From NCBI GenBank assembly GCA_001687465.1, contig LVLI01000117.1, forward strand, positions 1 to 64,000: DNA of 64,000 bases, written 5' to 3'. Source of the DNA: Halocafeteria seosinensis (Eukaryota). Position numbers and translations under genes: made by a program. Below the pieces are notes generated by a model. It searched no databases. It worked only from the letters and a program-made list of their open reading frames with translations, and was not told the origin of the DNA. Shown in pieces: positions 66 to 64,000 of this stretch; position 1 is the first letter of the stretch, and the number at the start of each line of letters is the position of its first letter.

Positions 66-384
66 TCCGAAGACGCGACGCCTCCATACAATGCGACTTC
101 CACAATGATCATTCTACGTGCAACGCAAACGTAAAGAGCAAGGGGATACAACTCGGAAAGAGGACAGAGTGTCCATAGGAAGAACGAAGAGCTTAATGTT
201 GCGATTGTTAGACATGCTACAGGATACTCTAAGTTCCAATTTTCACAAGTGCTGGGAAGCAGAATCGGCGGATACCATGTATCCAGTCTGACCACATCTT
301 ACAGAGTATGACGTACTAGGGTGGCCAACTCCCGTTGGCGCGTGGTAGAGAATCCCCAGGTTTTACACTTCTTCCTCATATGAA

Positions 385-2321
385 TCAGATGCTGAGCGAC
401 CGGGCAGAGAATCCCCAAACTGCAGCTATAACGACGAAGGATACAACAAAGCTTCCGACGCATCGTACTTCGAGGTACTTGGGACGGGCAACTCCGGTGT
501 ATTCAAAGAACGCATTCGTTGAGGGGAATCCGAGCACCGCCGACTGCAAACCCCATCCCATAGCGAATTTCCGCTCTCTGTAAGCAATTACCCCAATTGC
601 AACACCCTGAATGATGTGCGCAGCAATCGCTGCAAGGAAGATTGCGAGTAGCAGTAGGCGTATGCTGACATGTGCAGCAAAACCGTTGTAAACGACAAAT
701 TGAAAGCCAGAGCCTGGAGAGAGCTGAGAACTAACTAGCGAAAGTGTACTGGTGAGTAGACCGAGAGTGTCAAAGCCCAAAAAAGCTGTCAGGAGCGTTC
801 CACCAACCACTCCGACCCACCATGCCCAATGAGGGTGCTGGACTGTACCATCGAAACCAATTCTGCGGTAGTACTGTATAAAATAAAGCATTGCTTCAGT
901 TGGCTTGATTATATGTTCGTATCCAATTTCGCGGCGAGCAGCCTCGCTGGAGCAGTAGTTGTCGACCGTAGCTTTGTGAAAATCGGGAATGCTCATCAAG
1001 GGTTCAGCTTTGATTACAGGTTGTAGGAGTTTGTAGATAAGTTGCGTCATTAAAATGAACGGCAAAACTAGAAAATCCGGAATCGAGAGAGTGGGAGGAG
1101 CCGTTGCTAGACGTAAGTTTTTCCACTTCTTGGGGTCAGACAATTCTCCTTCCGTAGCAGGTTGCGCCTTTGAGGTAAGATACTGCACGTAGTAAGGATA
1201 CGGAAAGTTGAGACCCTTCAGTAAGGGCGAAAAGAATTCCACGGTTGCACATGGCCATTCGTCGGTTACAAAAAACGCTCTTCCATTTACTCTTCTCCTC
1301 TTACTGTCGTCTCGCAGTGTTTCCAAACCACATATGAAGGCGTGCGCCAAATTATCTCGGTGAGTAAAGTCCATTGCGCCTCTTCCAAAGGCTGCAATAG
1401 TTCCACCCAACCTTGCAACTTTCAGGATCTTGGGAGTGTGATGCATTTCACCCGGGGCCCAAATCCCTGAACGAATACAAAAGGAACCCGAGATTAGTGA
1501 CACTCCTTGACAAGAAGGGGCAAGCAAGTTTTCTTACCGTTAGGCCGAATGGATAGCGTATGAAAGTTATCTGTAGTCTCATCGCGAACACTGAGTTCGG
1601 CGAAAGCTTTGGACTTCGAATACGCGTCATTCCATCTCGTAGGCATCTCACGGCTCTCATCCACTTCTTGTAAATTGTTCTTCCCATCAAATACTACACC
1701 GGTAGATGAACAGTACAGGAATCGCCTCACCCCAAATGTCTTCGCAAAGTGAATGAGAGACGTAGTGGTATTCACGTTCGCTTTTATCAACTCGTTCTCG
1801 GAGTACATGCGAGTATGGTTATAAGGGACCAACGCCGCAAAATGAAAAATCGCCTCGATAGTTCCCACAAGCTCCCTCTCCAGCAAATGTTGGATTTGTT
1901 TGCTATCAGCCAAATCACACTGCAGCGGAAAGCCACGGTTCCACTCCAGGAGCGTCAGCATATGGCGGGAACCAGAACTACTCACCTGGACAAATTCGAC
2001 GTTCGTGGGAGGTAAGGGCATGCTATGCAAACAAATTCCAGCCTTGAAATTGGAACTCTGCTTCCTCGTCTTCGGTGACGTCAGCGCAAGGTACTCCTCC
2101 GAGTGTTTCAAGATCTCCTCGTGCTGCGCAATCTCTTCAGGGTATCGTACATCCGTCGCAATGATTTTAGCGCCGGGATACTGTTCCCAAAGGGACCAAA
2201 CCATCCCAGAGCCTCCACAGCCGAAACATCCGGTCACTAGAAACACTGCATCCGGTTCTAACGGGATTGGAGCCGGAGAGCTCCGGCTCCGGCTACTGCG
2301 TCGACGCTGTGGCGACGACAT
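385..2321 (-). CDS. 3-beta-hydroxysteroid dehydrogenase-type extended SDR with C-terminal membrane domain (SDR42E1/NSDHL-like), 3 exons
   Basis: Rossmann TGCFGCGG, FHFAA, YCSSTGV, catalytic YSKSK, spliced RPNG|IWAPGE. C-terminal hydrophobic AH..QG...GWGLQSAVLGFPS segment. Introns 1920-1985 and ~1467-1537. Confidence 0.85.
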
Positions 2322-2594
2322 ATATGCACATAAGAAAGGTTTACACCCAAAAAAGATAGAAAATTTTCAACTAAAACTAAACGCATTGATTACCTAGGTT
2401 ACACGGACAATTCTAACGTATGTGTCAACACTGCTGCTCGCATTCCACCTCGCCCAAAGCTGACTCAGCGAGTGAAAACTGGGTAACAGTGTCATGTGAC
2501 ATACATATAAATGTGTGTATACCTACGTAGTTTTGTATTTAATTTCGGAACAGCCAAATTGCAGGTGGTCCTGAAGTATACAATTGGATGCACC

Positions 2595-5500
2595 TTAAAG
2601 TGCTTCAACGCTAGCGGAAGATGGTTTTTCAGCTTTTCTGGCTCGCTTGCCTCCTTTACCTGTAGCTGATCGTTGCTCCTCCTCTTCCTGGTCAACTTCT
2701 CCATCAGCTTCATTCCGAAGGCTTAGCTGACCCTTATCTTGACTGTGACCATGCGTGACAGTCCTCGTTACTGTAGAAACGCCGTTGACAAACTTCGTCC
2801 TGAAAACAACGTTCGCGTTCCCAAACATTCCTTGCTTTAGGGAAACTATAATGAACTGACTGTTCTTGAAATGAGACCGCAGCATCTTTCCAATATTCTG
2901 GGTATGGCTTGGGTCCAATGCAGCATCAATCTCATCCAATATATACATGGGCGCTGGTTTAAATAGTAGTAATGCGAGAATCAAGGACAGCGCCAACAAG
3001 CTCCGCTGGCCTCCAGACAATTCACTGAGTGATTCCTTCCACACGGTCCCAAAGGCTACCTTGACCTCGAGCCCGTCTAGTACAGTTTGCCCTTCCGGTG
3101 GATCCAGACGAGCAGTGGCTCCCGGTAAGACAGTTGAGTACATAGACCCGAAGTCGCGGTTCACTTTTTCCCAAGTGGTCTTGAGAGCTTCTTTCTTCTT
3201 TTCATCTAGTTCATCAATCACTTTCTCTATTTTTGCCTTATCATTTTCAATGATCTTCCTCTTATTCATGAGATCTTTGTACTCCTGCTCGGCGGTTTCA
3301 ATCATTCCAAGTACCTTCTTATTCACTTGCTTACCCAATTGCTCTTGTTCACGCTCCAGCTTCTTCAGTTTCTTGGACGCCTCCTTGGGGTCGATTGCAT
3401 CGAAGTCATAGTCGGACGCTGGTTTGCCAAAGTACTTTTTGTCGTTTGCTATCCATTCATGCTTCTGTTCTAACTGCTGAACTTTCTTCCTTGCGGCATT
3501 AACTTCAGAGTCATGCTTGTTGGCTTTATGCTGAGCTCTTTTCAACTCGTTTTCTGCTTCTTGCTTCCTCCCTTCAATTTCATCCTTTTCCGCGACAAGT
3601 TGCTTCAAGGACGCATCCGCCTCGGACATAGCCTCGCGCTGTTTATCGAGGTCGTATTTGATGTCTTCGTACTTCTCATTGGCTGTATCTGCATCCTTTC
3701 GTAATTTTTCTTCTTCTTGCTCAAGCTTCTCCTTAGATTGCTTTGCTTGTTCAAGAGTGTCCTCGGCAGACTTGACATCCTTTTCCGCTTGTTCGAGCTC
3801 AAGACGAAGTTCATCAATCTTATCCTTCAACTTCTGCGCCGCTTCTTGCGAACGAGATGCATTCTTCTTCGCTGTTTCTATTTCTTTTTCGAGTCGTTTG
3901 ATAACATCGTCCCGATTTTCAGTACTTTCGTTAACCCGTTTCTGAAGTTTGGCAGCTTTGTCGCTGGCCTCCTTCTCGCGCTTCCTTGCATCTTCCAACT
4001 GACTCTCCGTTTCTTCTTTTTGCTGGTGGAGATCTTTGACCTTCTGTTGAGCGACACCATGACTGCTTGTCTCAACTCGTTGCTGAGCTAGCGCCAAATT
4101 ATGCTTAGCTAGATCCAATTTGTCTTCAGCGTCATCCACCGCCTTCTTCTGTTGTTGTAAGTCTTGGAGTTTGCCTTCAATTCCTTCCAGCTCTTCGGAC
4201 AGCTTTGCTTTTTGAGAACTCAGTTCATTGATTCTCTGTAACTTCAAGAGTGTAGAGGTGCCGTTGGTGTCTCTCCCCGAACCACCTTCCAGCGTCCCCG
4301 CAGGATCGAATGTGTCACCCGCTAGTGTCACACAAGGGGCCTTTATATTTGGATCAAACGCCACTTTCTTAGCAGTCTCGAGGTCATCACAGACGAAGTG
4401 CTTGCCAAACGTATAGCTCATCGCTTTAGCCACATTCTTGTCATAGTTAATGAGAGACAATGCAGGACGCGCTTTATTGCCAGCGATCTCCTTTGCCTTC
4501 TTAATTTGCTGGTCGCTTAGAGACGATGCCACGACCTTGTTGAGGGGAATAACTGTGGTTCGGCGTTTGAGATTACCGTGCTTCAACAAAGCTTCACCGG
4601 TTTTCTCGCTGTCTACAACGACCTGGAACAATTTTCCTCCTGCGACTACTTCGAGAGCAGTGGCTGCGTTGGAATCTTCGACACTGAGAAGCCGCGCAAC
4701 TAAACCTTTAACGTTGGAATTCGAGAACCCCCGGGGCATGTTAGAGTCATCGTAGCTAAAGTGAAATCGACCACCCAAAGCCTGATCCTTCGAAGTTATA
4801 TCGTGAGAAAACTTTTCAATTTGCCTACCCAACTTTTCTTTGTGCTCCTTCAAGTCTCTTGCAGAAGATTCATCATAAGTCTGTTTTGCCTGTTCAAGTT
4901 CTTTCTCAGCATCTTCTACTTCCTTCTCTGCCCGGCGAACAGATTCCAAGAGATCCTTACCATCTTTTTCTCCTTGTTTTTCGGAGTACTTGGCTTCTTT
5001 TAGCTGTTTCTCAAGCTGCTTAACCTTTTGCTCTGCGTTAGAGGCTTCAGCTGCTGCTGCGGAGGCTGTCTTCTTGGCCGTCATCAGCTGTCCTTGAAGT
5101 GTTGAATTTCCATCCTCATCCTCAGAACCACCAACCCCGGCTGTTACCGCCTGATATTGAGTCTGAAGATCTTTCAACTCTTTTTCGGCATCTTCGGCCT
5201 CCTTGAGTTGACTTTGAGCACTGCGTTCTTGCTCCTCCAATTGTTGACGGAGAGATTCGGCATTCTTCTTATTTTCTTCAACTGCAGATATCCATGGAAT
5301 AACCGCAGACAAGTAGAATCAAAGAGCATGTTTTGTTTTAGTACGACCACAGGCGATGCTTACGTTGAGCTTCGTGTCGTTGGTACGTTTTCTTCTCATC
5401 TTCCAATGCACGCTTCTTGTTCTCCCAAGTAGTCTTGGCCTTGACAACCTCTACCGAAGATTTTTCCTCGTTTTTCACGGCTTCGTTGAACTCCGCACTC

Positions 5501-18214: not shown

Positions 18215-18288
18215 GCCCGTGTAGCTCAGCTGGTTAGAGTACCAGACTCTTAATCTGGTAGTCCGGGGTTCGAGCCCCCGTACGGGTA
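18215..18288 (+). tRNA. tRNA-Lys(CTT), intronless
   Basis: Cloverleaf: acceptor GCCCGTG/TACGGGT, D arm GCTC/GAGT, anticodon stem CCAGA/TCTGG with loop CTCTTAA (CTT at 18249-18251), T arm CGGGG-TTCGAGC-CCCCG. Confidence 0.96.
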
Positions 18289-55247: not shown

Positions 55248-56095
55248 TTACTCGTCTTCGATCACTACGGTGCCGTTGTCAATCTCTTTGCAAACCTTGT
55301 GCGGATGTTTCTTATCAACCGTGCATCCGATAGAATGGCATGTTCCCAAGATTTCCTTTACTGTTCCGTAGAAGAAGCGAGCCATGGAGCGCTGCCTCAT
55401 TGTTCGGGCAATTTGCTTCACTTGTTCTAAAGTTAAGTTGCCGTCGTGCTTGACTGCAGGAATAAACATTAAAAAGTTCCTTACCCATCATAGTACGCGT
55501 AATCGAATATAATGACCACGTACTGTTCTTAGGTCCTTTCTTTCTATCACGAGGAGGTTCTTTCAACTCGCGGATAACCAATGACGAAGCACTGGGAACG
55601 ACCTCGACCTGTGTTGGCAAAAAAGACGAGTTGCTCCCAAAACCCCATCAACAGTGGCCTCAAGAACTTACAGTAGCCTGGCGGTTGACGACAGTAAGCT
55701 TGACAGTCACACGGAGTCCCTTCCAGTCCATTGTATTCTTCTGAATATCTTCACCTATCTTCTTGGGAGATAACCCAAGAGGACCGACCTTGGGGGCTAA
55801 GGTAGAGGCAGCTCCAACCTCACCACCTACTGTCCTCAAGTAGACTGCAAATACACACATAACACCATATAGTAACTGATCATGTCCCTATTGTCGACAT
55901 TTTCCCGGGAGAGGTGTCATCATACAGCACAGTAGACGGATTCCACCACTTCCCCTTGAGAGCAGACACCACCTCTGCTCCCCCGTCCCCTGTTCCTCGG
56001 CTACTGGCTGTACCCCATCCTTTTTGTAGTTCTTCGGCAGTGGAGCTTGAACACTTACTGATTTTGGCCTCCGAAGCATCAAATTTAGGCGGCAT
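55248..56095 (-). CDS. RPL12: 60S ribosomal protein L12 (uL11), 4 exons
   Basis: [61 protein letters not shown]; introns 55845-56058 (214 nt), 55609-55671 and 55454-55523. Confidence 0.98.
55905..56000 (-). promoter_or_regulatory. Putative structured intronic cis-element mimicking the LSU rRNA uL11-binding site (H42-H44)
   Basis: AGGGGACGG...GGAAGU..GGAAUCCG...UGUAUGA...CACCUCU matches rRNA GCAGGACGG...GGAAGUCGGAAUCCG...UGUAACA...CACCUGC (rRNA recalled from memory) with compensatory stem changes. Confidence 0.65.
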
Positions 56096-63210: not shown

Positions 63211-64000
63211 TTACTCGTCCGTGTTCAAACACATTGCAACACCTTGCAGCACCCAATGGCTTTCATGGTGTTCAGTGTTTAGAAAAGCGTCAAATACAAG
63301 CCCTACACCCATTGCATTCCGACGCTGTTGTGTGACATAGACTGGGGTCTGGAAAGTACCGTGAAGTTTTAACTTGGAAGCTTCAATGGGAATGATCTGA
63401 ACTATTGGAAGTTCTTCTATCAAGACTTTCGGACGTTGCTCACGGAGAACATTGCGTTCGAAATCCCAACTGGCACCTTCCAGATAGATACCCGACACGT
63501 AGCATCCGTCCTCCGAAGGACCCGGTACGTCTTCAGAGGTGCGATAGTGAGTGACTTCGGTATATAGAGTAGACTTATCCAAGGGCCAATTACGTCGTCG
63601 ACAAGTAGATTGCACCAAAGCAGTGAGGTAAGATTCGGGAATATGCAACCCCGACAGCCAGATCACCGTGGGCTCCCCATGGTCTATCCAACTCTGATAC
63701 TGAAGATGTCTGGAACGGAAATGTTGCATCCATGAACCCAATGGTTTTTGAGTATCGGGAGCGAGGGACTTCCAGAGTCTTGGGATTCGTCCATCGAAGA
63801 TAGCATCTCCTATCTCTTCCAACTGATCGCTCATGCCGATTTCGCCTGCAAGAGCACGCTGAAGATCCAACAACGAGCGTTTCATGGAAGTAACGAGGAA
63901 ATTCCACCGTTCAAGTTCTTGAAACAAGACGACCTGCGTAGGGGTAGGTGCACTACCTTCGGGAACCAACCTTCGTCGGATATTGTGGGTGTCTTCGGGT
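63211..64000 (-). CDS. DNAH10: Axonemal inner-arm dynein heavy chain, C-terminal part (DNAH10-like); gene continues beyond the window
   Basis: PTQVVLFQELERWN, LAGEIGMS, WLSGLHIPESYLTALVQ..CR..WPLDKSTLYT, RRNAMGVGLVF, SHWVLQGV. Confidence 0.9.
   Translation of the reverse strand, partial: PEDTHNIRRRLVPEGSAPTPTQVVLFQELERWNFLVTSMKRSLLDLQRALAGEIGMSDQLEEIGDAIFDGRIPRLWKSLAPDTQKPLGSWMQHFRSRHLQYQSWIDHGEPTVIWLSGLHIPESYLTALVQSTCRRRNWPLDKSTLYTEVTHYRTSEDVPGPSEDGCYVSGIYLEGASWDFERNVLREQRPKVLIEELPIVQIIPIEASKLKLHGTFQTPVYVTQQRRNAMGVGLVFDAFLNTEHHESHWVLQGVAMCLNTDE

Follow-up and report, generated by a model that had tools for sequence, protein, structure and literature searches.

Results

The RPL12 gene and its relatives

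The window, by which we mean the whole 64,000-nt stretch analysed (positions 1 to 64,000 of contig LVLI01000117.1), comes from Halocafeteria seosinensis; Halocafeteria is a bicosoecid stramenopile. Reading of the window revealed a compact eukaryotic genome around the gene for the cytosolic ribosomal protein uL11 (RPL12), which runs from 56095 to 55248 on the minus strand and encodes 166 amino acids in four exons. Its first intron is absent from the gene-finder predictions, and the boundaries of this intron were set by homology. The parts of the gene are listed below (L numbers denote other loci).

56059..56095, minus strand: exon 1, 37 nt coding, ending in phase 1; L003, L004, L009, L010, L016 and L025 share this intron position
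55845..56058, minus strand: intron 1 (214 nt), with a canonical donor of 8.9 bits at 56058 and an acceptor of 9.6 bits; boundaries by homology
55672..55844, minus strand: exon 2
55609..55671, minus strand: intron 2, 63 nt
55524..55608, minus strand: exon 3
55454..55523, minus strand: intron 3, 70 nt
55248..55453, minus strand: exon 4 up to the stop codon, giving 166 amino acids after splicing

Among the matches listed, the nearest named proteins were RPL12 of diatoms and Parmales, with 84–89% identity over exon 2. Close relatives are also known as the proteins P0005, P0007 and P0241, the first two at 96–98%, and the closest locus fetched, within the best 80 of 234 confirmed metagenome loci, reached 88%. 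A protein search with exon 1 read through into intron 1 gave no match, and no relative of the gene was found on viral contigs. The SMC2 protein encoded in the window is identical to the transcriptome-derived protein P0121. An Rfam search of the RPL12 locus returned only two irrelevant lncRNA matches with E above 4; the sole Rfam match at gathering score in the window was a tRNA gene at 18215–18288.

Intron 1 is unusually long

Intron 1 measures 214 nt, as compared with 56–102 nt (median 70) for 62 other predicted introns of the window. A simple gene finder had given 83 introns, from which seven in five doubtful genes and 15 further doubtful introns were dropped, and to which one SMC2 intron fixed by P0121 was added. 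Nine of the 15 dropped introns exceeded 120 nt, and one was refuted by P0121. At least one other, at 63214–62926 (289 nt, 37% GC), may be a real second long intron or a gene boundary, so the length of 214 nt is unusual rather than proven unique. First introns at the same position in other RPL12 loci are fairly long too, about 90–200 nt. The upstream 133 nt of intron 1 have a GC content of 56% and 36% G, against 44 ± 5% and 23% in other introns. The original prediction had divided the intron at position 55925 into a poison extension and an ordinary intron; the composition does not bear out this division, as the GC step is weak and falls near 55903 instead.

A weak candidate donor would lead to unproductive products

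The alternative splicing event that had been proposed, from a GTATGA donor with its G at 55925 on the minus strand to the acceptor ending at 55845, reproduces in all its coordinates, and the following features were placed.

55920..55925, minus strand: GTATGA, a weak (5.2 bits) candidate for an alternative 5′ splice site, in the register of rRNA 1093–1098
55926..56058, minus strand: putative poison extension, 133 nt
55845..55925, minus strand: 81-nt intron that would be left for splicing from the alternative donor
55880..55882, minus strand: stop codon on retention of intron 1, after 71 codons
55820..55822, minus strand: premature stop of the +133 isoform, after 64 codons
56077..56079, minus strand: second AUG of exon 1, not in frame with the normal coding sequence; in the +133 isoform it would open a frame of 205 amino acids

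At 5.2 bits the candidate donor falls well below the canonical one (8.9 bits), and 3 of 62 real donors are this low or lower in a leave-one-out comparison. It is the best of nine internal GTs scored, the other eight reaching at most 1.9 bits. Decoy GTs match its score 93 times in 53 kb, and an equal donor at a usable distance arises in 16% of 5000 intron shuffles (a frameshifting one in 11%). The donor classes among the 62 predicted introns were GTAAG (32), GTACG (16) and GTATG (8), counts that partly reflect the prior given to the gene finder, with only three SMC2 introns supported by transcripts. The claim that GTATG donors serve other genes of the window was borne out, as this class is the third commonest (one of the eight is backed by a transcript-derived protein), and A at +6 occurs in none of the eight. 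A residual intron of 81 nt, described beforehand as typical, lies within the range but at its long end (7 of 62 introns are at least 80 nt). Because the loop of the rRNA itself starts with GUA, the donor is not independent evidence; given GTA, a score as high arises 22% of the time. Taken together, these data are compatible with use of the 55925 donor and by themselves argue for it weakly.

The 133-nt extension shifts the frame as claimed, to a TGA at 55822–55820 with two junctions downstream; the distance from this stop is 148 nt to the nearer junction and 233 nt to the farther, which agrees by sequence with the >50-nt rule for nonsense-mediated decay (NMD). The extension contains an AUG of its own, which lies in another frame and opens only 5 codons. 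Full retention of intron 1 would also stop early, at 55882–55880, again as predicted.

Part of the intron resembles the uL11-binding site of 28S rRNA

The reference for the rRNA site was obtained with a gapped intron pattern, which gave 38 loci representing 11 near-identical 58-mers, one of them confirmed as eukaryotic 28S by Rfam, and its structure was taken from Rfam RF02543. Positions in the rRNA are given in what we take to be E. coli numbering. The spacing of the U1060–A1088 pair, which contacts the uL11 protein, agrees with this numbering (PMC2175356). We also noted 37 prokaryotic genome records (L082–L118) with eukaryotic 28S-type sequence, evidently contamination.

55910..55976, minus strand: partial look-alike of the 28S uL11 site (H42–H44), matching it at 33/58 positions; pairing is retained in H42 and H43, A1056 is deleted, and neither A1088 nor the stem of H44 is preserved
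55934..55974, minus strand: H43-like hairpin (state B) of 6 bp, a UG/AU internal loop and 6 bp; the best in the window
55948..55953, minus strand: six bases identical to the rRNA H43 loop 1067–1072, within an enlarged apical region

When identity and rRNA-defined pairs were scored together, with pairing imposed in H43 and H42 and no constraint on the apical loop, the element ranked first of 852 window tiles (33/58; next best 29), was equalled by none of 3000 shuffles and exceeded the maximum of 30 found in 252 kb of other RPL12 loci, the scoring freedoms (the A1056 deletion and the long loop) having been chosen after the element was seen. A descriptor of the H43 loop found 6 + 6 bp in intron 1, the best match in 128 kb; 13 of 10000 shuffles reach this match, and 794 of 10000 satisfy the loosest form of the descriptor. 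Since six of the 384 possible loop identities, that of H43 included, have their best or tied-best window match in intron 1, a fair chance level is about 1–2%. The best uL11-site match in 128 kb lies on the sense strand of the one long intron of the uL11 gene.

The H43 stems around the 1060–1061/1077–1078 internal loop are present with identical core bases, and an H42-like closing helix of 5 bp stands at the rRNA spacing with A1056 missing. Such a closure preceded by CA occurred in 7 of 10000 shuffles and 1 of 598 tiles. In the H44-like loop, 4 of 6 bases match. The rest of the site is poorly kept: position 1088 is G and no A is found at 1086–1090, leaving the element without the U1060–A1088 pair, the 1082–1086 pair is lost (U·C), one of three H44 pairs remains, and the apical region has 19 nt as against 9 nt in 28S H43. 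More general methods did not recover the likeness. A covariance model of the rRNA site scored the element at 2.9 bits (E 0.55 in a search of the intron), its window search returned six better chance matches and not the element, and over 39 RPL12 loci it yielded no useful match; Rfam found no match to the element. In plain local alignment to the rRNA site under six schemes, 229 to 3056 of 5000 shuffles reached the observed score, and when identity was counted without pairing, 86 of 3000 did. No full mimic was seen in the other RPL12 loci. As judged from these comparisons, the element is a partial, H43-centred likeness rather than a full uL11 site. Of the H42–H44 mimic that had been proposed, a statistically real partial likeness in H42 and H43 survives, whereas H44 does not; since H44 is hardly mimicked, the donor is probably not displayed in an H44 loop.

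H43-like hairpins occur in the leaders of other RPL12 genes

The metagenome scan used the best 80 of the 234 confirmed RPL12 loci; the start codon could be placed in 79, of which 54 were non-redundant. Of these 54 loci, 20 satisfied a strict H43-like descriptor, tuned on the same leaders, no more than 100 nt from the start codon (antisense 0/54; tiles 89/2286); a limit of 200 nt raised the count to 23 (antisense 4). By clade, the hairpin was present in 13 of 16 diatom/Parmales-type loci, nine of the 11 non-fungal loci that fall near an arachnid protein, none of 12 green-lineage and none of 10 fungal-type loci, counts in which bootstrap support is not settled, kin are not independent and lineages are inferred from few named references.

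L002:513–558, L003:569–610, L004:1273–1317, L005:1401–1442, L006:1418–1461: H43-like leader, diatom/Parmales-type
L007:1404–1464, L009:1222–1266, L011:194–229, L016:339–384, L019:380–427: H43-like leader, diatom/Parmales-type
L020:121–188, L022:1–48, L058:203–259, L001:1388–1431: H43-like leader, diatom/Parmales-type
L021, L024, L026:420–464, L029:826–867, L047:107–149: same internal loop in animal-like RPL12 leaders
L063:1424–1463, L073:890–934, L076:126–166, L077:25–66: same internal loop in animal-like RPL12 leaders

Most of the diatom/Parmales-type leaders end at the start codon. Among the features left free by the descriptor, 1057–1081 pairs in 18 of 23 leaders, and A stands at 1088 in 17 of 23, with the reservation that the leaders are rich in A. 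The 1058–1080 pair is C-G in 14 of the 23 and G-C in nine, the animal-like leaders mostly showing the flipped G-C form. In the 13 diatom-type leaders 81% of cells pair, against 18–54% when slid; these leaders read as H43 followed by the 1082–1088 strand and H42, H44 being deleted, and 12 of 13 keep A1088.

The H. seosinensis gene stands apart from this group. The descriptor found no match in its own 5′ leader, and the strict form found none in intron 1, which has U-A rather than G1062–C1076 at 1062–1076. A covariance model of the diatom leaders missed both intron 1 and the five rRNA loci given, so the link between leaders and rRNA rests on the loop descriptor rather than on the model; over 46 sources this model picked out L001 (E 0.024) and, weakly, L076 (E 1.1). 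Rfam gave no leader match over 20 RPL12 loci, four of them fungal-type. The leader family thus read from sequence raises the prior that uL11 recognizes H43-like RNA on its own transcript; it is not proof of homology with the intron 1 element, which neither descriptor nor model places in the family.

Other RPL12 leaders showed different structures. L012, L014 and L017 share another conserved leader about 60 nt upstream of the start, with a UU/AU loop and, by eye, apparent compensatory pairs. In the fungal-type L023, L035, L045, L048, L056, L060 and L061 the leader pairs with the first 5′ splice site of the same gene, and L060 shows a compensatory change. An H/ACA snoRNA (Rfam snR80, 54.8 bits; L056:2172–2315) adjoins RPL12 downstream in L056.

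Predicted folding suggests two competing states

55958..55982, minus strand: 9-bp hairpin of state A, with a pair probability of at least 0.97; it competes with the H43-like fold, and the two exclude each other
56001..56013, minus strand: predicted outer stem of state A, 5′ arm
55922..55935, minus strand: outer stem of state A, 3′ arm, predicted to bury the alternative donor

In six sequence contexts, opening the 55925 donor was predicted to cost 5.1–6.5 kcal/mol in the free fold and 0.8–1.0 kcal/mol when the H43-like hairpin was enforced, and access to the canonical donor shifted by at most 0.8 kcal/mol between the folds. The H43-like fold itself costs 7.4–8.9 kcal/mol, and the full three-way fold 14.0–16.4 kcal/mol. 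Intron 1 as a whole folds no better than shuffles (z +0.56). The segment 56014–55921, picked post hoc, folds with a z of −2.4 (12/500 shuffles), and a 9-bp hairpin is found in 203 of 1000 shuffles.

Discussion

In this study, we examined the long first intron of a protist RPL12 gene. Of the reading put forward originally, the long intron, the single plausible internal donor, both premature stops and the likeness to rRNA hold as far as they can be read from the sequence, while the mimicry of H44 and the independence of the donor do not. These parts may be joined in an explanation that we prefer tentatively, as possible though short of probable: intron 1 would be a two-state RNA switch through which surplus uL11 diverts its own pre-mRNA to the 55925 donor and to predicted NMD. 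As the partial look-alike overlaps a weak spare donor that would give a dead-end message, surplus uL11 would likely lower its own output.

Binding, refolding, donor use and decay are steps that we infer. Without the protein, the 9-bp hairpin and the long outer stem would hide the weak donor and loop away some 90 nt, with the result that the strong donor at 56058 is predicted to be used. Free nuclear uL11 would bind the H43-like hairpin (55974–55934), paying about 8 kcal/mol for refolding, and would thereby free the donor 9 nt downstream of the hairpin. The freed donor could win on intron length, 81 against 214 nt, or splicing could stall; either unproductive product would stop early. SMG1 is reported to be absent from 12 of 19 stramenopile genomes (PMC5709506). 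The sign of the feedback constrains the model. If uL11 sat on an H44-like loop, it would be expected to mask the donor and promote the productive route, opposite to what feedback requires. The required sign is obtained only when the protein binds further upstream, in the H43 part, and opens the stem that hides the donor. The imperfect site may not repay the predicted cost of refolding.

Several other explanations must be weighed against this switch. The rRNA likeness and the donor may both be accidents of a G-rich insertion in an intron that is simply long and constitutively spliced, which we consider unlikely but of real weight. Both covariance models miss the element, the plain alignments are not significant, the tests are partly post hoc, the mimic fold is 7–16 kcal/mol uphill, and same-position first introns of about 90–200 nt elsewhere lack a full mimic; yet accident would have to place the best uL11-site match of 128 kb on the sense strand of the uL11 gene's own long intron, and only 6 of 384 decoy loops do as well. 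Clearly unlikely, in our judgement, is a real uL11 sensor whose binding slows or blocks splicing of intron 1, causing retention (with the 55880 stop) or nuclear decay and leaving the 55925 GT as an unused by-product. The ease with which an rRNA-like loop supplying GTA yields such a donor score, the A at +6, foreign to the GTATG donors, and a GC step at the end of the element, away from the donor, all suit retention; but the distance of the donor is a usable one, no other internal GT scores higher, and its accessibility differs more from one fold to the other than that of any other site; with H44 otherwise degenerate, mimicry gives scant reason to keep its loop.

The remaining explanations are decidedly unlikely even when taken together. 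It is quite improbable that the ground-state fold is itself functional, as a hairpin that shortens the intron or binds a factor other than uL11, or that the intron carries a small RNA. The post hoc fold of 56014–55921 favours such a fold, the commonness of the 9-bp hairpin in shuffles speaks against it, and for a small RNA the snoRNA just downstream of the fungal-type gene in L056 and a C-box-like heptamer at 55923–55917 are countered by the lack of any Rfam snoRNA match in the RPL12 locus at E up to 10, of a downstream D box, and of an H-box/ACA layout that fits the intron. The literal form of the model, a full three-way rRNA mimic with uL11 acting on a donor shown in the H44-like loop, is very improbable: the H42-like closure with its CA agrees with it, as do the four matching loop bases, but the three-way fold costs 14–16 kcal/mol, H44 and A1088 are lost, and a protein on the loop would hide the donor, giving positive feedback. 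That the alternative donor gives a working product, either a 205-amino-acid uL11 from the second AUG or an in-frame 78-nt cassette exon (56003–55926), is hardly credible. The second-AUG frame is open across the whole extension into exon 2, but at −3 the first AUG has A where the second has a pyrimidine, the cassette would need a 1.4-bit acceptor (the 10th percentile of real acceptors being 3.8) after a 55-nt intron, and no 205-amino-acid variant appears among the 120 matches listed, which also lack the organism's normal spliced protein.

To our knowledge, RPL12 was the earliest metazoan ribosomal protein found to alter the splicing of its own transcript. Feedback by unproductive splicing has been reported for this gene in C. 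elegans and human (PMC4937301; PMC8047918), and autoregulation of rpl-12/RPL12 through splicing and NMD is attributed to Mitrovich and Anderson (2000) and Cuccurese et al. (2005), as cited in PMC4937301, PMC8047918 and PMC5765348. The candidate described here shares with these cases the protein, a premature-stop isoform from an intron and feedback as the proposed purpose, but it concerns a protist gene and an isoform predicted from sequence. It also has a candidate rRNA-like cis element, whereas none is named for C. elegans or human RPL12 in the accessible passages of PMC4937301, PMC8047918 and PMC5765348. The rRNA-mimic intron switch, as modelled, is a plausible variant of the known RPL12 splicing feedback.

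Its components have counterparts elsewhere. As with the L10ARE of rpl-1/RPL10A, a ribosomal protein would choose between two 5′ splice sites through an intervening element; L10ARE, however, is reported to be unrelated to the rRNA site in sequence and structure (PMC4937301), whereas the RPL12 element is similar to its rRNA site and spans the distal donor. Imperfect mRNA copies of an rRNA motif are described in the yeast RPL1B 5′ UTR and in bacterial ribosomal leaders, but the yeast protein is uL1 and its element lies in the leader rather than in an intron (PMC7732827). Compared with 28S H42–H44 (RF02543), the H. seosinensis element keeps the lower stems of H43, the UG/AU internal loop, six loop bases and the H42 spacing, and differs in the deletion of A1056, the apical size (19 against 9 nt) and the loss of A1088, the 1082–1086 pair and two of three H44 pairs. 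A conserved RNA fold on the RPL12 transcript, with autoregulation proposed, has also been described in Pezizomycotina, where it lies in the 5′ UTR (Gao et al., 2021; PMC8216456); the leader pairing in our fungal-type loci, a hairpin on the first 5′ splice site that falls outside the H43 descriptor, is probably this motif. The fungal motif may overlap the H43-like leader family. In the literature searched, with most subscription papers outside the search, we found no report of the H43-like diatom/Parmales leader, of a stramenopile RPL12 leader or of an rRNA mimic in RPL12 transcripts.

A wider picture, which for now we hold to be rather doubtful, is that eukaryotic uL11 controls itself across distant lineages through stripped-down copies of H43. 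In diatoms, Parmales and animal-like lineages the copy would be an undescribed leader next to the start codon, and in H. seosinensis an intronic, riboswitch-like version that couples binding to splice-site choice and decay. The resemblance of the candidate to the rRNA site of uL11 makes recognition of the pre-mRNA directly testable with a 70-nt RNA and, if true, would extend splicing-coupled feedback by ribosomal proteins to a protist lineage. Should the intron prove neutral, the leader family would remain a finding in its own right, suggesting that self-control by uL11 may be widespread and may have moved between translation and splicing.
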